Source of the DNA: Candidatus Limnocylindria bacterium
GTDB taxonomy: Bacteria > Chloroflexota > Limnocylindria > QHBO01
Length of the DNA stretch: 64,000 bases
Assembly (NCBI GenBank): GCA_050692055.1
Contig: JBOGTC010000075.1
Location: forward strand, 4,438-68,437
Direction of reading: 5' to 3'
Part shown: piece after piece, positions 3,336 through 11,756 of the stretch
Layout of the letters: the number at the start of each line of letters is the position of its first letter
How positions within the stretch are numbered: position 1 is the first letter of the stretch
Made by a program: the position numbers and the translations under genes
Notes under the pieces: model-generated
Databases searched by the model: none
Seen by the model: only the letters and a program-made list of their open reading frames with translations
What the model was told of the DNA's origin: nothing

Positions 3336-4316
3336 TCAGCGCGTCCCCACCTCCCTCCCGGGCTCGGCAAGGCCGGCACCGATGCCACGGCGGGCGACGG
3401 CGGCAGCCCCCAGCGCTCCGACCGGCCGCGCGTCGTCGAGGATCTCGATCGCGTCATGCGCGATGGCGCGATGCACGAGGGGCGAAGCCACGCGCTCCCG
3501 CTCGATGGCGGCCATGAGCGGATCCCGGAATGGGCGGCCAGCGCGCGAGACGCCGCCCCCGATGACGATTCGCGGGACGCCGAATCCCAGTGCCAGGCCG
3601 CGTACCGCCCGCGCGAGGTGACCGGCCGCTCGCTCAGCGATCTCGGTCGCGAGGGAGTCCCCGGCTGCAGCGGCCCGATACACCTCCGCCGTTTCCGGCG
3701 TCGATCTCATCGAGCTGCGCCGGCCCTCGGCCATTGCTTCGCGAGCCGCCCGCGCGACAGCGGGCCCCGACGCCACGGCCTCCAGGCAGCCGTCCAGGCC
3801 GCACACGCACCGGGGTCCCGCGGCGTCGGCCACGGTATGACCGATCTCACCGGCGAGACCGTCGGCGCCGCGGATGACGATCCCGTTCACCACGACGCCG
3901 GCGGAGATGCCGGTGCCGACGCTCAGATAGGCCAGGTACGGGCCGTGGCCGGTGGCGTGCAGCCAGGCCACGACGGCGCGCGCATCGTGCTCGACGAAGC
4001 ACGGGACGCCAACCGCGGCGGCCACCAGCGCTCCGATCGCCAGCTCGCCTGCCCCGAGGTTGACGGCCAGGCGGATGACGCCCGAGTCGGCGTCCACCTG
4101 GCCGGGCACGACCACCCCGAGGGCGGCCAGCGAGCCTGCCTCGCCGTGAGCCTCGACGAGCAGCGAGCGGGCGAGAGCCACGACCTGAACGTCGAGCGCC
4201 TCGCCGTTGAGCTGCTGCTCGCCCATTGCGCGAACCGCGTTCGTCTCGGCGTCCAGCGCCGCACCGGCGACCTTCGAGCCGCCGACGTCGATGCCCACGA
4301 TGAGGCGATCCGTCAT
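3336..4316 (-). CDS. ROK family sugar kinase (glucokinase-like)
   Basis: MTDRLIVGIDVGGSKV... with ROK signatures, including a Cys cluster CVCGLDGCLE. Start chosen at internal ATG (4316) that forms an ATGA overlap with the upstream regulator stop. The N-terminal 150 aa of the track ORF is Arg-rich and non-protein-like. Confidence 0.75.
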   Translation of the reverse strand: MTDRLIVGIDVGGSKVAGAALDAETNAVRAMGEQQLNGEALDVQVVALARSLLVEAHGEAGSLAALGVVVPGQVDADSGVIRLAVNLGAGELAIGALVAAAVGVPCFVEHDARAVVAWLHATGHGPYLAYLSVGTGISAGVVVNGIVIRGADGLAGEIGHTVADAAGPRCVCGLDGCLEAVASGPAVARAAREAMAEGRRSSMRSTPETAEVYRAAAAGDSLATEIAERAAGHLARAVRGLALGFGVPRIVIGGGVSRAGRPFRDPLMAAIERERVASPLVHRAIAHDAIEILDDARPVGALGAAAVARRGIGAGLAEPGREVGTR

Positions 4317-5515
4317 CGCGCCGGCGCCAGTCCGAGCTCTCGTGTCATCAGCAGCGCTGCCGCCCCGAGCAGGACGAGGTCCGACCCCAGGCGGCCGACC
4401 TCGATACGCGTCGCGTCGGCCAGCAGCGCCAGCGCGCTCCGGTGCGCCTCCCGCCGGACCGCCGTGAGCCACGGATCGCCGAAGCGCGTCATCTCGCCGA
4501 CCAGCACCACGTGCCGCACGCTCAGGGTCCCGATCAGGGATCCGATCGTGCGACCGAGGTGCCTCGCTCCGTCGAGAACGACCTCGCGCGCCAGGTCGTC
4601 TCCGGCCTCGAAGGCATGCTTCACGTCGGCAAGGTCGATCCCGTCCGTGGTGGAGGATCGGTGGAGCATCGACTCCGGCGCGTGCGGGGCCAGCTCGCGC
4701 GCGCGGAGGACGACCGCCCGCGTCGAGGCGAGCGTCTCGAGGCATCCGACGCTGCCGCATCGGCACGGCCGATAGTTGTCCGCGATCGCCGAATGTCCGA
4801 TCTCGCCGGCGCCTGACCCTTCGCCCTGGTAGAGATGGCCGTTGAGGACGAGCCCGGCACCGATGCCGCGACCGACCTTGACCACCACCATGCTCTCCGA
4901 GGGCTCATGCCCGCCGAACGTGTGCTCGCCCAGTGCGGCCGCGTGCGAATCGTTGGCGACGTACACCGGCAGCTGCCAGCGTTGACGAAGGCGCTCGCCC
5001 AGCGCGAGGTCGCGCCAATCCAGGTTCACCGCCCAGCGCACGGTTCCGCTCGCGGTGTCGATCAGCCCGGGTGTGCCGATGCCGATACCGAGCATCGGCT
5101 GCCGCGGCGACTTGAGCAGCTTCTCGATCAGCGTGTCGAGCCGTGCGAGGGCCTGGTCTCCGTCTCGACCGTCCAGCGGAAGCTCGACGCGCCCGCGGAT
5201 CTCGCCCCGCAGGTTCACGATGGCGCCGGTCAGCAGGCTGTCGCCCACCTCGATTCCGATCAGGTGGCGCGCCTCGTCGGGAACGCGCAGGAGGATCGGC
5301 GCCTTGCCGCCGGTCGACTGTCCGGGCCCGATCTCCTCGGTCAGCCCTGACTCGAGCAGGCCTTCCACGACGTCGGAGATGGTGGTCCGGGTCAGTCCCG
5401 TACGGCGTGCGATCTCGGCTCGGCTGATGGGACTGTCGTCGAAGATCGTCCTGAGCACGAGCCGCTGGTTGATGAGCCGCGTCTGCCGGTTCGTGGCCTT
5501 CTGCAGGGCTGGCAT
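4313..5515 (-). CDS. ROK family transcriptional regulator (NagC/XylR-like; N-terminal wHTH + ROK sugar-binding domain)
   Basis: 400 aa. N-terminal HTH segment (ISRAEIARRTGLTRTTISDVVEGL), then ROK domain with zinc motif CRCGSVGCLE. First gene of the sugar operon. Confidence 0.75.
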   Translation of the reverse strand: MPALQKATNRQTRLINQRLVLRTIFDDSPISRAEIARRTGLTRTTISDVVEGLLESGLTEEIGPGQSTGGKAPILLRVPDEARHLIGIEVGDSLLTGAIVNLRGEIRGRVELPLDGRDGDQALARLDTLIEKLLKSPRQPMLGIGIGTPGLIDTASGTVRWAVNLDWRDLALGERLRQRWQLPVYVANDSHAAALGEHTFGGHEPSESMVVVKVGRGIGAGLVLNGHLYQGEGSGAGEIGHSAIADNYRPCRCGSVGCLETLASTRAVVLRARELAPHAPESMLHRSSTTDGIDLADVKHAFEAGDDLAREVVLDGARHLGRTIGSLIGTLSVRHVVLVGEMTRFGDPWLTAVRREAHRSALALLADATRIEVGRLGSDLVLLGAAALLMTRELGLAPAR

Positions 5516-5986: not shown

Positions 5987-6277
5987 ATGACCGATGCGCT
6001 CGGTGCCATCGCAGCCTCATGGGGCGTGCTGATGGCCATCTCGCCTCTCCTGCAGATCCGCCGCATGCTCGCGCGGCGGTCGTCGTCCGACGTCTCGCTG
6101 GGCTACCTGGCGGTGCTCGAGATCGGCTTCACGCTGTGGATCGCGTACGGTATCGCCCTGGGCAATGCCGCCCTGATCGTTCCGAACACGGTCGCCTTCG
6201 TCATCGGCCTCGCGACCATCCTGGTGACGCTCCGATTCCGCGCCGGGCCGGCCGCCATGACCGAGCCCAGCCGCTGA
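5987..6277 (+). CDS. SemiSWEET / PQ-loop (MtN3-saliva-like) 3-TM sugar transporter
   Basis: Internal ATG of ORF 5837..6277 gives a 96-aa protein with three TM helices and an SPLLQIRRM PQ-loop-like motif. The upstream 50 aa of the ORF is low-complexity. Confidence 0.55.
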   Translation: MTDALGAIAASWGVLMAISPLLQIRRMLARRSSSDVSLGYLAVLEIGFTLWIAYGIALGNAALIVPNTVAFVIGLATILVTLRFRAGPAAMTEPSR

Positions 6278-6283
6278 CGCGTG

Positions 6284-6510
6284 CCGCGGGCGCCGCTGGA
6301 TCACGCGGAGACCGCCTGCTCGCAGCACTGCTCGCCCACTGCAACGTATCCGAGGTCTAAGGCCGCTTCGAGTCTCCAGGCAGACCAGATATCGGGTCAA
6401 TGTTCCGTACGCGACGCATTGGCGCTATGTGCCGCGGCTGTGCCCGCGCTCAGCTCGGGTAAGTGGCATCAGCCGCGCATTAGTGGCATCTGGCGGGCTG
6501 GTCAGCCGGA
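6284..6510. repeat. Copy A of a ~230-bp duplicated intergenic element (second copy at 11757-11990), possible structured ncRNA
   Basis: Direct alignment of the two regions shows about 80-85% identity over ~230 bp with small indels (a 3-nt and a 1-nt). Conserved blocks: cacgcGGAGACcgcctgctcg, tatccgaggtc, cgaGTCTCCaggca, atatcgggtcaatg, cgcgacgcattg, cccgcgctcagctcgg, gcatcagccgcgcatt, gtggcatctg, ggtcagccgg. Both copies begin within ~10 nt of a + strand stop codon. Confidence 0.6.
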
Positions 6511-6831
6511 GCGTGTGTGCTCATCGGCTCCGCACTGCGGCAGGTTCTCGACGTGGCTGTCCGGCGCGGCGTCCGAGGCTGAGCGGATGGTCACCGTCCC
6601 GCAGAGGGGGCAGACGAAGGGCAGGACCGATGACGAGAGCCCGCTGGTGGCGCTTGCCGTGTGGAAACGCTCTCCCGCGCGGACGGCGGTGACGAAGCTC
6701 ACCACGCTCCATCGCTCCGTTTCGCCGTCCGCCTCCGTGGTGTGCAGCGCCACCACGTGCGTGTGGTCGGGCGCCCGCGGCACAGTGCCCCGCTCGACGC
6801 AGACCACCCTGTGACTTGCGGCGTACTCCAC
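6502..6831 (-). CDS. Hypothetical Cys-containing small protein (possible zinc-ribbon)
   Basis: Part of ORF 6502..6972. GTG at 6831 is preceded by GAGGAGGA RBS. Product VEYAASHRVVCVERG...VLPFVCPLCGTVTI...PQCGADEH. Codon third-position GC is high, consistent with coding. No recognisable family. Confidence 0.3.
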   Translation of the reverse strand: MEYAASHRVVCVERGTVPRAPDHTHVVALHTTEADGETERWSVVSFVTAVRAGERFHTASATSGLSSSVLPFVCPLCGTVTIRSASDAAPDSHVENLPQCGADEHTRSG

Positions 6832-6894
6832 GAAACCGTCCTCCTCGACAAAGCCTCGGGCGCACAGCCACCCCTCGCTGCTGCGTGATAATAG

Positions 6895-6924
6895 TTGAAT
6901 AGAGAGGGCGCGCTCCGCTAGGAT
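6895..6924 (+). promoter_or_regulatory. Sigma70-like promoter candidate (TTGAAT-N18-TAGGAT) for the 38-aa peptide gene
   Basis: Seen in sequence within an unusually AT-rich patch (gataatagTTGAATagagagggcgcgctccgcTAGGATcgcg). It lies ~45 nt upstream of an AAAGGAGC RBS. Confidence 0.4.
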
Positions 6925-6971
6925 CGCGTTCTCGGGTGGGGACCGATGCGCCCGGCGAGCGGAAAGGAGCA

Positions 6972-7088
6972 ATGCTCATGACTCGCCTCCGCTCGACCCT
7001 GACCTCTCTGGGCCTCTCACTGATGTTGCTGCTTATGAACGTCGCCATCCTATTGGCGAGCGAAAGCAAGCCCCCGTTCCCGAAGTAG
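6972..7088 (+). CDS. 38-aa pre-peptide (signal-peptide-like hydrophobic N-terminus plus polar C-terminal tail), candidate secreted signalling pro-peptide or small membrane toxin
   Basis: ATG with strong RBS (GGAAAGGAGCaATG). Translation MLMTRLRSTLTSLGLSLMLLLMNVAILLASESKPPFPK then TAG. Located 65 bp beyond the 3' end of the convergent XRE-TPR regulator. Local GC is lower than surroundings. Confidence 0.35.
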   Translation: MLMTRLRSTLTSLGLSLMLLLMNVAILLASESKPPFPK

Positions 7089-7152
7089 AAGAGCTCTAAG
7101 TCCGCTAACTCAGTCCGACGCGGCTCGCCAGTGCCCGGTCTCCGCCTCGACG

Positions 7153-8442
7153 CTAGCGCCCCAACGCCTCCGCGTATAGCCGATTCGCCGCGGCGAACTC
7201 GCCTTGGGCAGTGAGGAGATCGGCCCATTCGGCGAGCACTTGACGTACTCGTTGCGCTGGGCCTCTCTCGCGGAGAATCGAAGCCGCAGCGGCAAATGAC
7301 TTTCCAGCGTCATCAAAGGCGCCGCGTTCGCGGGCGATGCGAGCACGGGTCACGAGCGCGCGCGCCTGAGCCACGTGCGATCCGCCGCTTTCCGCAGCAT
7401 CGATAACCTCGCTGATGAGCCGCTCGGCTGTGGCACCATCACCAGCAGCCCACGCAATCCTCGCCTTCGTCTCCAGGATCTCAGAAAGAACGTGCGCGTC
7501 GTCGTGCGCGTTGGCGATCGCCTCCGCGTACTTCACCTGCTCTTGGGCTTTGGACGTGTTGCCCAGCTCGAGATACGTGAGGGCAAGATTATTAGCAAGC
7601 GCGGCATGCTCCACGCTCGACTCGATCGCCCGATACAGCGCGAAGCTCTGCATTCCAGTACGGAGCGCACGCTCGTAATCACCCGACATGTGATGCTGCA
7701 GCGCCAGCCCCGAGAGGAAGGCAGCCTGCTGCTTCAGGCTGAGCCCATCGGTCAGCGAGCGCGCCTCCTCCATGTAGCTCAATGCGCGCTCAGGGTTCCC
7801 ATCCCAAGCCTCGACATTCGCAACTGCGGTCAGTAGGCGGAAGCGGAAGTCGGGCGCGACATTGAGGCCGCCCCGTTCCGCGTCGAGAAGCTCCTGGAGC
7901 AGGCTGCGCGCTTCGGCGGGGTTGTCCTGCCGATAGTGCGCGAAGGCGAGCCAGTACTTCGACCAGGCAGCATCGGTCGCCAGGTCCATCCGAGAGAACG
8001 CTTCTGCCGCCTCCGCAGCGGGACCGATGGCCTCCGATCCCCGATCCAGCCGGCACAGCGCCTCGGCCATGCCACGCAGCAGCTCGGCTCGAACGCGCCC
8101 CACGGGATTCGCATCAAGCAGCAGCTGGTACCGATCGAGCGCCTCCTGCCAGCGTCCGGCAGCCAGCGCCAGGTCGGCTTCGAGACGCGCGGAGGCGGGC
8201 TGCTCCACGTCCAGGAAGTCGCGCGGTGAGAGACCAAGACGCTCGGCAAGGAACGAGAGCGCGGCCATCGATGGCTTTGCGTGCCCCAGCTCGAGCGCGC
8301 TGATGTAGGCGCTCGTGTAGCGGCCCGCGGCGAGTTCTGCCTGGGTCAAGCCGGCTTGACGGCGTGCGTTGCGGATGCGGGTGCCGACGCGCTCAGCGAG
8401 CGCCCGGTTGTCGACCACCAGCACGTGCCGTCTCTTCCGCAC
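7153..8442 (-). CDS. XRE-family HTH + tetratricopeptide-repeat transcriptional regulator (RRNPP/Rgg-like architecture)
   Basis: 429 aa. N-terminal HTH_XRE (RIRNARRQAGLTQAELAAGRYTSAYISALELGHAKPSMAALSFLAERLGLS), then ~350 aa of TPR-like helical repeats. Confidence 0.75.
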   Translation of the reverse strand: MRKRRHVLVVDNRALAERVGTRIRNARRQAGLTQAELAAGRYTSAYISALELGHAKPSMAALSFLAERLGLSPRDFLDVEQPASARLEADLALAAGRWQEALDRYQLLLDANPVGRVRAELLRGMAEALCRLDRGSEAIGPAAEAAEAFSRMDLATDAAWSKYWLAFAHYRQDNPAEARSLLQELLDAERGGLNVAPDFRFRLLTAVANVEAWDGNPERALSYMEEARSLTDGLSLKQQAAFLSGLALQHHMSGDYERALRTGMQSFALYRAIESSVEHAALANNLALTYLELGNTSKAQEQVKYAEAIANAHDDAHVLSEILETKARIAWAAGDGATAERLISEVIDAAESGGSHVAQARALVTRARIARERGAFDDAGKSFAAAASILRERGPAQRVRQVLAEWADLLTAQGEFAAANRLYAEALGR

Positions 8443-8512
8443 GGCGACAGGGTACTCCAGCCCAAGTACGGTTTGAATGCCCCATTCCGCAGCAGGAGCG
8501 GAGGAATTCTGG

Positions 8513-9628
8513 CTACGGCCCGAAGCGGACCACCACCAGTCGATCGGCAGCCGATTCGGCGCCCCACACCTCGCCCTCGCGGCCCAGCAGCTGCCGCACC
8601 TGGGCCGGCGTGCTCTCGTGCGCCAGCGACATGAACGTCTCGGTCTGCGGATCGAAGCGGACCATGGCGTTGGCGCCGAAGTCGGTCACCCAGACCGCGT
8701 CGGTCTCGTCGACGTAGACGGCGTACGGCATCGGCGAGTCGCCCGGCAGCGGCCATTCGCGCCAGGACTCGTCACTAGGGTCGTACATCGCCAGGAGCCC
8801 GGCATCCCACTCGGTCACCCACAGCCGACCGTCAGAATCTGGCCAGACGCGGCGCGCTCCCCCGCCGGGGGTCGGCGTCTCGATCACGTCCACCGCGCCG
8901 GTCTCGGTGTCAATGGCACCCAGGTAGCTTCCTGCCAGCGCGCTGAAGTACACGTCGCCGTCCGGCGTGGTCGAGATGCCGTACGGCCCTCCGCCGTCCG
9001 GCGCATCGTAGATGGCAATCTCGCCGGTCTCCGGGTCGAGGCTGCCGTAGATGCCAGCCTGCCCCGTGAACCACAGGATCCCCTCGTCATCGAACGTCGC
9101 GGTGTTCAGATTGGCGTTCGGCGGCGCATCCGCCGGCAGCCGGTGGACGGTCACCGCCTCGGTCTCCGGGTCGACGGTGACGATCGCATTCAGGCCGCCG
9201 TCCGTGATCCACGGCGACCCATCGGGGCCCACGATCACGCCGTGCGGCTGCGATTCGGCGCCGAGCGGAATCTCGCGCACCTCGCCGTTCTGGGGGTCCA
9301 GCCAGCCTAGCCGCCCGGTCTGCTGCGCCACGTACCAGACGCCACCGTCGGTCGCCGGCGCCACGTCGTGCGGCCGCGAACCGGCCGGAACGGCGAATGA
9401 CTCCATCCTGAGCTCGTGCTCCGCCTCGGGCTCCGGACTGGCCGATGGGGTGGCCGACGCCGTCGGGGACGGGCTCTCGCTGGGCGCGGCCGAGGGCGTG
9501 GCTGCGCTCGGCAGCGGCGACCGGGGCACGACCGGCGGCGACGGTTCGGAGGCGGTGCAGGCGGCGAGCACGCCGAGCAGGCACGCGACCAGGCCGGGGG
9601 CGCTGATCGGGCGATGTGCTGGTGCCAT
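8513..9628 (-). CDS. Vgb-family (virginiamycin B lyase-like) beta-propeller lipoprotein
   Basis: 371 aa. Lipoprotein signal (LVACLLGVLAAC), Pro/Ser-rich linker, then repeated propeller blades (GPDGSPWITD, GILWFTGQAG, GDVYFSALAG, GRLWVTEWDAG, DAVWVTDFGAN) typical of Vgb/SMP-30-like streptogramin lyase family. Confidence 0.65.
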   Translation of the reverse strand: MAPAHRPISAPGLVACLLGVLAACTASEPSPPVVPRSPLPSAATPSAAPSESPSPTASATPSASPEPEAEHELRMESFAVPAGSRPHDVAPATDGGVWYVAQQTGRLGWLDPQNGEVREIPLGAESQPHGVIVGPDGSPWITDGGLNAIVTVDPETEAVTVHRLPADAPPNANLNTATFDDEGILWFTGQAGIYGSLDPETGEIAIYDAPDGGGPYGISTTPDGDVYFSALAGSYLGAIDTETGAVDVIETPTPGGGARRVWPDSDGRLWVTEWDAGLLAMYDPSDESWREWPLPGDSPMPYAVYVDETDAVWVTDFGANAMVRFDPQTETFMSLAHESTPAQVRQLLGREGEVWGAESAADRLVVVRFGP

Positions 9629-9731
9629 GCGCCCAGTTTCTCACCCGAACGCCAGCACGTCATGAAGCCACGTGGGGGTTGGCGGCGCCCGTGTGACGTG
9701 CAAGACTGACGCCCCTTTGCGAAGGAGCAGC

Positions 9732-11756
9732 ATGCACGACGACGGGCAGGCGGGTCCCCTCAGCCCCTCGACGATGCGGGCAATGGCGAGCTCGCCGTTT
9801 CCACCCATCGCCGAGTACGGCTTCCTGTCCGACTGCGAGACGACCGCGCTCGTCGCGCCGGGCGGAAACGTCGAGTGGCTCTGCCTGCCGCGCATGGACT
9901 CACCGAGTGTTTTCGGCTCCATCCTCGATCGCGATGCCGGCGGATTCCGGTTCGGCCCGGCCGACGTGACGGTCCCCGCAGATCGACGCTACCTGCCCGG
10001 AACAATGGTGCTCGAGACGAGCTGGGGCACGCCGCAGGGCTGGATCATCGTCCGCGATGTGCTGCTCGTCGGTCCGTGGCAGCATGAGAAGCAGCGCTCG
10101 AAGTCCCACCTGCGCGCTCCGACGGACTACGACGCCGAGCACATCCTGCTGCGCACGGTGCGGTGCGTGAACGGGGAGATGCAGCTCGTCCTCGACTGCG
10201 AGCCGGTCTTCGACTACGGACGCACGCTCGGACACTGGGAGTACACCGAATCCGGCTATTACCAGGGCGCCTGCCGCGCCGATGGCGACCAGCCGCCGCT
10301 GACGCTGACCAGCGACATCCGGATCGGGTTCGAGGGCCCGCGCGCCATCGGTCGCACGCTCATCAAGGAAGGCGAGACACGGTTCTGCGCATTGTCGTGG
10401 GGATCGCGCGAGCCGCCGCGGACCTCCGACGAGGCCTACGGGCGCCTGGTCTGGACGGCCCACCACTGGCAGCACTGGCTGGCGCGCGGTCGCTTCCCGG
10501 ACCATCCCTGGCGGTCGTACCTGGAGCGGTCGGCGCTGACGCTGCGCGGCCTCACCTACGAGCCCAGCGGGGCCATCATCGCCGCCGCCACGACCTCCCT
10601 GCCGGAAACGCCGGGCGGCGAGCGCAACTGGGACTATCGCTACAGCTGGATTCGCGACTCGACCTTCGCGCTGTGGGGCCTCTACATCCTCGGCTTCGAC
10701 TGGGAGGCGAACGACTTCCTGTACTTCATCGCCGACATGGCCAGCGGCGAGGAGGACCTGCAGGTCATGTACGGCATCGGCGGCGAGCGCGTCCTGACCG
10801 AGCGCATCCTTGACCACCTCAGCGGGTACGAGGGTGCCCGTCCAGTCCGCATCGGCAACGGCGCCTACAACCAGCGGCAGCACGACGTCTGGGGCGCGGT
10901 GCTCGACTCGGTGTACCTGCACACCAAGTCGCGCGACCACCTCGACGAGCGCATCTGGCCGATGCTGGTGCGCCAGGTCGAGGCCGCCCTCACCCACTGG
11001 CGTGAGCCCGACCGCGGGCTGTGGGAGGTGCGTGCTGAGCCGAAGCACTTCACCAGCTCCAAGCTCATGTGCTGGGTCGCCGCGGATCGCGGCGCCGCGC
11101 TTGCTCGCCTGCGCAACGATGATGAGCGCGCCGAACGATGGGCCGTCGCCGCAGACGAGATCCGCGACGACATCTGCGCCAATGCGCTCGACCGGCGAGG
11201 CGTGTTCACGCAGCATTACGAGACCGATGCGCTCGATGCATCGGTCCTGCTCATGCCGCTCGTGCGCTTCCTGCCCCCCGACGACGAGCGCATCCGTCGC
11301 ACGGTGCTGACCATCGCCGAAGAGCTGACGGTCGACGGGCTGGTGCTGCGCTACCGGACGCAGGAGACGGACGATGGGCTCCGCGGTGAGGAAGGCAGCT
11401 TCACGATCTGCTCGTTCTGGCTCGTCTCGGCGCTGGTGGAGATCGGCGAGGTGGAGCGGGCACGCCAGCTGGGCGAGAAGCTGCTCTCCTACGCCAGCCC
11501 GCTCGGGCTGTACGGGGAGGAGATCGATCCGCACAGCGGCCGCCACCTCGGCAACTTCCCGCAGGCCTTCACGCACCTGGCGCTGATCAACGCCATCATG
11601 CATCTCATCCACGCCGAGGGCCGAGGCAGCGCGGCGGAACCCAGCCCGGCCGACGAGATGTCCGAGCGCAGCGCCGCCCGGGCCGCACCCGACACTTCGG
11701 GAAATGGCCGCGGCAAACTACCGCAGCCGACCTCATCGCATTCAGCTGACGACTGA
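9732..11756 (+). CDS. Glycoside hydrolase family 15 (glucoamylase/glucodextranase/trehalase-like)
   Basis: ORF 9672..11756 trimmed to ATG at 9732, preceded by GAAGGAGC RBS. IAEYGFLSDCETTALVAPGGNVEWLCLPRMDSP N-terminal motif and (alpha/alpha)6 catalytic region typical of GH15. Confidence 0.8.
   Translation: MHDDGQAGPLSPSTMRAMASSPFPPIAEYGFLSDCETTALVAPGGNVEWLCLPRMDSPSVFGSILDRDAGGFRFGPADVTVPADRRYLPGTMVLETSWGTPQGWIIVRDVLLVGPWQHEKQRSKSHLRAPTDYDAEHILLRTVRCVNGEMQLVLDCEPVFDYGRTLGHWEYTESGYYQGACRADGDQPPLTLTSDIRIGFEGPRAIGRTLIKEGETRFCALSWGSREPPRTSDEAYGRLVWTAHHWQHWLARGRFPDHPWRSYLERSALTLRGLTYEPSGAIIAAATTSLPETPGGERNWDYRYSWIRDSTFALWGLYILGFDWEANDFLYFIADMASGEEDLQVMYGIGGERVLTERILDHLSGYEGARPVRIGNGAYNQRQHDVWGAVLDSVYLHTKSRDHLDERIWPMLVRQVEAALTHWREPDRGLWEVRAEPKHFTSSKLMCWVAADRGAALARLRNDDERAERWAVAADEIRDDICANALDRRGVFTQHYETDALDASVLLMPLVRFLPPDDERIRRTVLTIAEELTVDGLVLRYRTQETDDGLRGEEGSFTICSFWLVSALVEIGEVERARQLGEKLLSYASPLGLYGEEIDPHSGRHLGNFPQAFTHLALINAIMHLIHAEGRGSAAEPSPADEMSERSAARAAPDTSGNGRGKLPQPTSSHSADD

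Follow-up and report, generated by a model that had tools for sequence, protein, structure and literature searches.

The closest described counterparts of the module reported here are peptide-signalling pairs of Bacillota, such as PlcR–PapR, NprR–NprX, AloR–AloP and QsrB–QspB. In these pairs, a cytoplasmic receptor of 250–500 amino acids carries an N-terminal XRE-type helix-turn-helix (HTH) followed by a superhelix of the tetratricopeptide repeat (TPR) type. An adjacent small gene encodes a precursor with a Sec-type signal, the C-terminal 5–10 residues of which are the signal, and the circuit is autoregulatory. In the case of PlcR–PapR, the receptor and peptide alleles diversify as pherotypes. 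We describe a pair of genes with a similar layout in a 64,000-nucleotide (nt) stretch of a Candidatus Limnocylindria genome (GCA_050692055.1, contig JBOGTC010000075.1, positions 4,438 to 68,437), hereafter referred to as the window. A regulator gene on the minus strand (7153..8442) converges with a small candidate pro-peptide gene on the plus strand (6978..7088). Our reading of the sequence, to which we assign a probability of about 60%, is that the two genes encode an RRNPP-type signalling circuit, consisting of a secreted peptide and a cytoplasmic receptor, in the chromosome of a member of Limnocylindria, a class within Chloroflexota.

Other described systems resemble the module in part. The streptococcal pairs Rgg–SHP and ComR–ComS (XIP) likewise have very short precursors, with the C-terminal 7–11 residues serving as the pheromone, and receptors composed of an HTH and a TPR-like domain. 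Depending on the SHP group, the peptide gene may diverge from its receptor gene or converge on it, which is comparable to the two clades described below. However, SHP and ComS have no Sec signal and depend on processing by Eep and export by PptAB, whereas the small gene here encodes a predicted Sec-type signal. In addition, Rgg and ComR have about five repeats and belong to Pfam and TIGRFAM families of their own, which the regulator here does not match. Rap, the receptor of the Rap–Phr pairs, lacks the HTH that our regulator possesses. Regulators of the MalT/STAND and AfsR/NsdA types contain an NB-ARC/AAA ATPase or a SARP domain; our regulator contains neither and consists of HTH_3 and TPRs only.

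The regulator gene starts with GTG and encodes 429 amino acids, comprising an XRE-type HTH and about nine TPRs. In the public record the start is placed 6 codons downstream, giving a protein of 423 amino acids. Pfam assigns HTH_3 to residues 23–76 and, over residues ~140–427, TPR_12 (1e-18) and TPR_MalT (1.6e-13, exceeding the gathering score), as well as TPR_2 and TPR_19. In the AlphaFold2 (AF2) model, built on an alignment of 23 homologues (mean pLDDT 87, pTM 0.70), the HTH helices span residues 13–77 and are followed by 18 helices, or about nine TPR-like pairs, over residues 81–426. NprR has nine repeats as well. The Pfam assignments and the AF2 model thus agree with the architecture given in the original prediction, a note made from the DNA letters of the window alone. 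The HTH part (residues ~13–77; 8212..8406, minus strand) is the conserved half of the gene, with 95–97% nucleotide identity among related loci. The TPR sensor domain (residues ~116–429; 7156..8097, minus strand) is the hypervariable half, as delimited by the nucleotide identity and synonymous divergence (dS) of related loci. More than 1000 homologues of the regulator are present in the protein database, and the top non-self matches (55–63% identity, ~440 amino acids) carry the names of Candidatus Limnocylindria or Chloroflexota metagenome-assembled genomes (MAGs). N-terminal of the HTH, residues 1–12 (8407–8442, minus strand) form an extension in which the motif R-x-V-x-V-V-D-N-S-H-V-A-R-R is nearly invariant family-wide, which is unusual for XRE regulators.

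The small gene lies in an in-frame open reading frame (ORF) at 6972..7088 (plus strand), which encodes 38 amino acids if counted from ATG 6972, as was done in the original prediction. The true start is probably ATG 6978, giving 36 amino acids (MTRLRSTLTSLGLSLMLLLMNVAILLASESKPPFPK), because this codon follows the Shine-Dalgarno (SD) sequence at a spacing of 8 nt, fits the M-x-R-x-R-S start of the homologues and is the start used in public gene calls. The SD sequence itself, GGAAAGGAG (6961..6969, plus strand), is conserved as GCGGAAAGGGA among loci, consistent with the good ribosome-binding site that had been noted for this ORF. The ORF had also been considered unannotated, but the gene calls of GCA_975322505.1 (contig CDICOX010000076.1) list the 36-residue product at this site, and about 100 homologues have been called in metagenomes, nearly all as hypothetical proteins. 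As predicted, the 3′ end of the regulator gene is the convergent neighbour; the spacer between the two stop codons is 64 nt (7089..7152), and not 65. The gene is present in a single copy in the window and in every locus examined. Among 21 distinct homologues of 35 codons, pairwise differences at the three codon positions are 0.21, 0.11 and 0.42, and pN/pS is 0.40, as expected of a coding sequence.

When the protein collection is searched with a profile (50-column alignment), a precursor family of 105 distinct members emerges, which are 35–38 residues long, some being called with longer N-terminal extensions. The N-terminal part of the window product, composed of MTRLRS, a hydrophobic core and ILLA (6978..7058, plus strand), is a predicted Sec-type signal peptide. 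This assignment uses family statistics and was judged by the −3/−1 rule and the n/h/c anatomy only. In the family, the n-region has a net charge of +2 or +3, residue −1 of the predicted cleavage site is Ala in 105/105 members, residue −3 is Ala or Val in 104/105, and residue +1 is D, E, N or S in 101/105. In the window product, the cut is predicted between MTRLRSTLTSLGLSLMLLLMNVAILLA and SESKPPFPK. The predicted mature peptide SESKPPFPK (7059..7085, plus strand) is delimited by the tail statistics of the 105 precursors and by the onset of divergence at the first tail codon.

The predicted tails are 8 residues long in 90 of the 105 precursors, 9 in 14 and 10 in one. They comprise 65 distinct sequences with the consensus [DE][SG]xPP[IF]P[RK], in which P occupies position −2 in 98/105 and the final residue is R or K in 94/105. 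The consensus prolines are invariant, whereas positions 2, 3 and 6 are variable, with I, F, Y, H, W, N, Q, M or V at position 6. Distant variants such as DGSGNPWPK, DTSPGSWP, GDGPGPFPR and DGGTGPYPH retain the ending. A signal-peptide-like N-terminus followed by a polar C-terminal tail, originally read from one ORF, is therefore borne out across the family. In contrast to Bacillota RRNPP systems, the predicted mature peptide directly follows the signal-peptidase site, so that signal peptidase alone would free it without a pro-region or an exoprotease step, and the tail is proline-rich and ends with P-[RK]. Seven family members of 35 residues (P0142, P0149, P0160, P0165, P0167, P0190 and P0205) are labelled 'heme/copper-type cytochrome/quinol oxidase subunit 4' by the JGI pipeline, a label that is evidently spurious and due to the hydrophobic segment.

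The pairing of the two genes is conserved. In 111 public loci (31 from species-representative genomes and 80 from metagenomes), homologues of the small ORF were sought by tblastn, a pattern scan and a hidden Markov model of the peptide family. The small gene adjoins a regulator homologue in at least 75 of them, which answers the search for conserved synteny proposed in the original prediction. In 57 loci, where the regulators are at least 49% identical to that of the window, the arrangement is convergent, and the small gene follows 60–70 nt downstream. In a further group of about 19 loci, the regulators of which are more distant (42–52% identical to that of the window), the small gene is upstream of the regulator and divergent from it (L078, L081, L082, L085, L087, L088, L091, L093, L094, L096, L099, L100, L103–L108 and L111). 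Tails in this divergent sister clade include GDGPGPFPR, DNGKGSWP and DGGTGPYPH, and in L091, L104 and L105 an additional small XRE-HTH gene (~90 amino acids) is located between the peptide gene and the TPR regulator. The genes flanking the pair vary from locus to locus. The pair is kept in two arrangements amid differing flanks and is therefore a conserved unit that survived a rearrangement. In L063 (~1550–1700), a deletion has fused the first 8 peptide codons (MQRVRSTL) to a conserved spacer element described below. In L022 (5300–5800), the only genome-contig locus without the peptide, an inverted partial duplicate of the regulator is found in place of the peptide gene, and the remaining regulator is substituted at positions that are otherwise invariant; we count this loss pattern in favour of the signalling reading.

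Sequence comparison of closely related genomes reveals how the pair diversifies. Among loci L004, L013, L008 and L031, the flanking genes, regulator codons 1–115, the peptide promoter, the signal-peptide codons and a neighbouring gene of 100 amino acids are 93–100% identical at the nucleotide level, and the HTH part has a dS of ~0.12. From codon ~116 to the stop codon, the regulators of L004, L013 and L008 exhibit only 50–70% nucleotide identity, with a dS of 1.5–2.3 and a dN/dS of 0.10–0.24. At its opposite end, this divergent tract extends into the convergent peptide gene and stops exactly at the predicted cleavage site. There are 0–2 differences, all synonymous, over the 81 nt for VNRLRS...AAALA, whereas the 24 tail nt differ at 3–5 positions (Fisher p 0.0065–0.077 over six pairs, <0.05 in 5/6). 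The resulting tails are ESQPPFPR, EGQPPFPR, EGQPPIPR and EGQPPVPR. A second case is provided by L041 and L052, in which the HTH is 94.7% identical and the TPR domain 65.5%. The reverse pattern, a conserved TPR domain with a diverged HTH, occurs in 0 of 1711 pairs. In accordance, across 24 regulator–peptide pairs the tail distance is correlated with the TPR distance when the HTH distance is controlled (partial Mantel r=0.51, p=2e-4) and not with the HTH distance when the TPR distance is controlled (r=0.04, p=0.37). In the window, the TPR half has a GC content of 0.652 (GC3 0.73) and the HTH half 0.696 (GC3 0.81).

Because dN/dS is 0.10–0.24 at saturated dS, we judge from these alignments that old divergent alleles, exchanged by recombination and not produced by recent drift, make up the TPR half, the spacer and the codons of the mature peptide. 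On the same values, in-situ positive selection on the TPR domain is rejected. On this reading, the receptor sensor and the signal form one hypervariable unit of ~1.1 kb, a 'specificity cassette' that defines pherotypes. Owing to the convergent orientation, the sensor codons and the mature-peptide codons are contiguous and would be replaced together by one recombination event. This arrangement, together with the apparently leaderless regulator gene described below, differs from that of Bacillota RRNPP pairs, although diversification of receptor and peptide alleles as pherotypes is shared with PlcR–PapR. In agrBDC of staphylococci and comQXP of Bacillus, a hypervariable segment of ancient alleles spans the signal region and the receptor sensor and is bounded by conserved output and processing parts. 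The module here likewise has a hypervariable segment over signal and sensor between conserved parts, but the comparison concerns only how the systems work: agr and comQXP use membrane histidine kinases and the peptide-modifying enzymes AgrB and ComQ, whereas the regulator here is a cytoplasmic one-component protein and no such enzyme is present. Two contigs of the MAG SMAG_U917, DASSCI010000058 and DASSCI010000072 (L008 and L031), break inside the locus and carry different alleles (EGQPPVPR and EGQPPIPR). Strains in one sample may therefore be polymorphic at the locus, or the locus may exist as two paralogues.

The DNA around the two genes contains features compatible with autoregulation, which would be expected here as in the PlcR–PapR group. 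According to a 29-locus alignment, the peptide promoter (6885..6924, plus strand) comprises an AT-rich motif GTGATAATAGTTGAA at 6885–6899, a −35 box TTGAAT at 6895–6900 and a −10 box TAGGAT at 6919–6924. The motif takes in the first 5 nt of the −35 box, and the two boxes are spaced by 18 nt. The sigma70-like promoter of the original prediction holds in so far as this segment aligns with the extremely conserved peptide promoter of the convergent clade, TTGATAATAGTTGAT(T)-N17-TACTAT/TACCAT; the window copy, however, matches the consensus at 8/12 positions and is missed in a strict promoter scan. Downstream of the conserved promoter, a G-rich 5′ untranslated region (5′UTR) of ~50 nt leads to GCGGAAAGGGA. 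Each locus has a single copy of the AT-rich motif, without exception at the peptide promoter. Its opposite strand reads ATCAAC-TATTAT, in which TATTAT resembles a −10 box for a divergent gene of ~100 amino acids, the ATG of which is 6–11 nt past TATTAT in most loci. The motif may therefore represent two back-to-back core promoters, the second yielding a leaderless mRNA. What could be taken for an operator in TTGATAATAGTTGAT is equally explained by a peptide −35 box overlapping the −10 box of the divergent leaderless gene. In the divergent clade, the core AATAGTTGACA-N17-TACCAT is found at the peptide gene, and the divergent leaderless position is held by the regulator itself or, in L091, L104 and L105, by the extra small HTH gene.

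The regulator promoter region (8449..8476, minus strand), delimited by comparison with relatives, contains a −10-like TACCCT 6 nt before the GTG and an imperfect inverted repeat TCAAACCGTACTTGG (reverse complement of 8462–8476). In the convergent clade, the regulators of relatives (starts in L003–L029, corresponding to window 8443–8480) have TATAGT or TATCAT 6–7 nt before the start codon and no SD sequence. This short distance from the −10 box suggests that the regulator gene, like the divergent ~100-amino-acid gene in most loci, has a leaderless mRNA. The peptide gene, unlike these two, has a long 5′UTR and a strong SD sequence. An inverted repeat resembling TCAAC-N5-GTTGA, located 36–38 nt upstream of the regulator start, has at least 8/10 matches in 10 of 28 loci, compared with 1.2% of background windows. 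The regulator-upstream repeat and the peptide promoter have CAACTAT in common. This heptamer occurs 41 times in 250 kb, where ~5 occurrences are expected by chance, with ~26 at the peptide promoter and ~10 within 60 bp upstream of the regulator start. Such a layout would be expected of a receptor that is autoregulated and also controls the gene for its signal.

We propose the following mechanism, in which export, cleavage, import, binding and the sign of regulation are what we infer from these features. The 36-residue precursor would be expressed under a conserved promoter and ribosome-binding site, both strong, exported via Sec and cut by signal peptidase I after A-x-A. The cut would directly free a protease-resistant, proline-rich peptide of 8–9 residues, SESKPPFPK in the window. 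At a sufficient external concentration, the peptide would be re-imported through a presumed oligopeptide permease and bind the concave face of the nine-TPR domain of the regulator. Binding would alter the contact of the XRE HTH with DNA at two sites, namely the TCAAC-N5-GTTGA-like repeat over the regulator's own promoter and a related site between the peptide gene and the divergent gene (109 amino acids in the window), where their promoters lie back to back. The outcome would be autoregulation plus one local output.

An operational signature of RRNPP systems comprises a small pro-peptide, a Sec signal, a receptor of 250–500 amino acids, TPRs and direct adjacency (PMC10075063), and all five are found here, the Sec signal by the −3/−1 rule. 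The regulator, with 429 residues and TPRs, falls inside the ~250–500-residue range of RRNPP(A) receptors and has an N-terminal XRE-type HTH, as do PlcR, NprR, Rgg, PrgX, ComR and AimR. The pro-peptide, with 36 residues, is within the range of 10–100, and its gene is 64 nt from the receptor stop codon. Together with the adjacency in two arrangements, the signal-peptide features with a short conserved tail, and the co-diversification of the TPR half and the tail, this upholds the initial proposal of an RRNPP-like receptor and pro-peptide pair as a candidate.

Several observations weigh against this assignment. In the profile searches that the original prediction had called for, none of the RRNPP-specific Pfam and NCBIfam models (RNPP_C, Rgg_C/TIGR01716, ComR_TPR, AimR and Rap) is matched at E<=1, whereas the TPR region exceeds the Pfam threshold for TPR_MalT. 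The sensor domain of MalT is not a peptide receptor. When the family profile is compared with PDB sequences, the TPR part retrieves kinesin light chain and LGN, with RapJ weaker (E=0.007), and only the HTH retrieves PlcR, ComR, SinR, ClgR and DdrO. Foldseek with the regulator model places OGT and LGN at the top, the PlcR–PapR–DNA complex at rank 5 and several Rap proteins after it. Eukaryotic LGN matches the fold at least as well as Rap, NprR, AimR and PlcR do, so that the fold is compatible with the assignment and not specific to it. The module is therefore not classed as RRNPP by descent. Compared with Bacillota RRNPP systems, it occurs in Chloroflexota and has a TPR domain of the TPR_12/TPR_MalT type without detectable homology. 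Further, some regulators, those of L058 and of the near-clonal clade L064 and L066–L069, are orphans without a peptide gene, and no oligopeptide-permease binding protein (SBP_bac_5 type) is encoded among the window ORFs scanned. The hydrophobic core of the precursor is long (~20 residues) and unusually conserved, with Ser or Thr at every fourth residue (S6, S10, S14 and T18 are invariant in 21 sequences). Finally, the tail and TPR segments are physically contiguous and could co-vary by hitch-hiking. Linkage alone could yield part of the co-variation, which therefore supports binding but does not prove it.

Some of these observations would be accounted for if the regulator and the small gene were functionally linked without the peptide being the regulator's ligand. 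In that case, a MalT-like sensor would control a secreted peptide with another target, such as a membrane receptor or another species, or with an antimicrobial or adhesive role. The significant TPR_MalT match, the lack of RRNPP-specific homology and of a nearby permease among the scanned ORFs, and the fact that regulators often adjoin the genes they control are all in line with this explanation. However, it leaves unexplained why the hypervariable tract consists of exactly the TPR half and the mature-peptide codons and ends at the cleavage site, and why the tail distance tracks the TPR distance and not the HTH distance. In addition, the genes around the pair include no conserved one for a histidine kinase or another receptor. 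We therefore regard a different target as unlikely. The conserved core with its Ser/Thr period of four is unusual for signal peptides and keeps alive another explanation, in which the 36-residue product is an uncleaved single-pass membrane protein (N-in, with the short proline-rich tail outside), for example a modulator of a transporter or protease, and the adjacency reflects co-regulation only. The length of the hydrophobic stretch, its conservation beyond that of typical signal peptides and the oxidase-subunit labels given to some members by JGI pipelines agree with a retained helix. But a retained helix would account neither for the cleavage motif at −1 and −3 nor for a tail length held to 8–10 residues, and the tail varies along with a cytoplasmic sensor that could never meet an uncleaved external tail. 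This explanation is thus quite improbable.

Two further explanations concern the nature of the small ORF. It is hydrophobic and small, and with 64 nt between the convergent stop codons the 3′ ends of the two transcripts could overlap, as would suit a type I toxin under antisense transcription from the regulator gene, an alternative already raised in the original prediction. Type I toxins are generally kept translationally silent, whereas this gene has a strong conserved promoter and SD sequence. Moreover, it encodes a cleavable-signal signature with its A-x-A site and a conserved polar, proline-rich tail, the pairing persists in the divergent sister clade without convergent antisense, the gene is single-copy, and a Rfam scan of 6400–8700 gives no match. 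We consider a toxin highly improbable. Much the same holds for a precursor of a ribosomally synthesized and post-translationally modified peptide (RiPP) or bacteriocin, with the TPR protein acting in the control of its biosynthesis or immunity. In NCBIfam, the TPR region has a weak partial match to HaaT, a TPR protein of cyclophane RiPPs (E=3e-8, well short of the cutoff), which points in this direction. Yet genes for a modifying enzyme, a transporter or immunity are not conserved beside the pair, the flanks of which vary; the leader resembles a Sec signal and not a RiPP leader, and the core of 8 residues lacks Cys and, in most cases, any pattern of modifiable residues. A RiPP is accordingly a very remote prospect, and a secreted signal read by the adjacent receptor is the interpretation we prefer.

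A literature search combining RRNPP with Chloroflexi, Chloroflexota or Actinomycetota, and Limnocylindria with quorum sensing, finds no such system described. The main surveys in the literature searched frame RRNPP(A) as systems of Firmicutes (Bacillota) and of their plasmids, phages and mobile elements, in line with the earlier statement that such systems are essentially undescribed elsewhere. We put at about even odds the broader proposal that a large unrecognised RRNPP-type family exists in Chloroflexota (Limnocylindria, related soil lineages and possibly Actinomycetota-binned genomes), as an ancient outgroup of the Firmicutes RRNPPA family or as an independent invention, and generates pherotypes by swapping one cassette of TPR sensor plus mature peptide. 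The new phylum, the minimal precursor, the predicted proline-rich signal and the convergent specificity cassette are what distinguish the module from known systems. If the reading is correct, peptide signalling via cytoplasmic TPR receptors would extend to another monoderm phylum, in an abundant uncultured class of soil and freshwater Chloroflexota. An outgroup search has been named as the way to decide between nine and five TPRs for the ancestral receptor (PMC12700828), and the module would supply the outgroup sought for the RRNPPA family or else a case of convergence. It would also provide a testable handle on the social behaviour of organisms that cannot yet be cultivated, namely a predicted short, unmodified peptide that can be synthesised, a soluble one-component receptor, and natural allele swaps as specificity controls. 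The cassette itself would explain in simple genetic terms why a receptor and its signal can diversify without losing their match.

A third conserved gene, F2, is located on the other side of the peptide promoter (6502..6831, minus strand) and diverges from the peptide gene. It encodes 109 amino acids and is present in a public gene call. Homologues of ~100 amino acids are found by tblastn at the same position in 16 loci plus the window, for example L004 5573–5865 and L031 1150–1443, and contain the motifs HxH, TRDPDGGxTRW and VIAAIRDGERFVV and a C-terminal CPxC. Pfam assigns F2 to no family with significance (DUF3892 reaches just E=0.35), and a protein search with the window F2 retrieves only itself. 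F2 is probably the local, co-regulated output of the circuit.

The other neighbours in the window are largely genes of sugar metabolism. Besides sugar ABC transporter genes, they include a SemiSWEET gene (MtN3_slv; 5987–6277, plus strand) and genes for ROK-family regulators, a GH15 glucoamylase/trehalase and a secreted beta-propeller resembling Vgb lyase, the last three kinds occupying 4313–5515 (minus strand), 8513–9628 (minus strand) and 9672–11756 (plus strand) collectively. None of these four kinds is conserved beside the module in other loci, except GH15 in the closest relatives, L001 and L002. The original prediction had likened the pair to arbitrium. AimR–AimP is phage-borne and has AimX as output, whereas the regulator here has no relatives in IMG/VR viral contigs, PADLOC and PHROGs searches give HTH-only matches, and the module lies among housekeeping sugar-metabolism genes. 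On this evidence, the module is not phage-borne. The GC content over 6800–7800 is 0.62–0.65, compared with 0.68 window-wide, a dip that is real but mild, so that the 'AT-rich patch' from which horizontal acquisition had been suggested was overstated. A foreign island is rejected, since the module is lineage-wide and its flanks are ordinary chromosomal genes. What remains of the suggestion is the exchange of the sensor/peptide allele, with the TPR half being lower in GC.

The full module is also found in MAGs binned outside Chloroflexota. L027 (binned as Mycobacteriales) and L030 (binned as Nocardioidaceae) have 49% identity and the tail DGSGNPWPK, and represent either a real actinobacterial branch or mis-binned contigs. 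L012, L015, L018 and L025 are from MAGs binned to other phyla, with labels including Pseudomonadota.

Two further features lie outside the coding sequences. The peptide 5′UTR (window ~6931–6977; L003, L009, L011, L021 and others) contains three to four G3–4 tracts, for example GGGTGGGTGGGCCGGCGGG in L021. These tracts may form an RNA G-quadruplex overlapping the ribosome-binding site, although they could also occur by chance in a genome with 69% GC. The spacer (7089–7152) contains an element of ~32 nt, CAGCCGGTAGTGCTCGCCGGCCGTGCCCACCC, which is conserved in relatives within an otherwise divergent spacer (L004 5309–5372; alignment columns ~257–290). The element, which is no canonical terminator, contains a CCCACCC complementary to a conserved GGGTGGG in the peptide 5′UTR.

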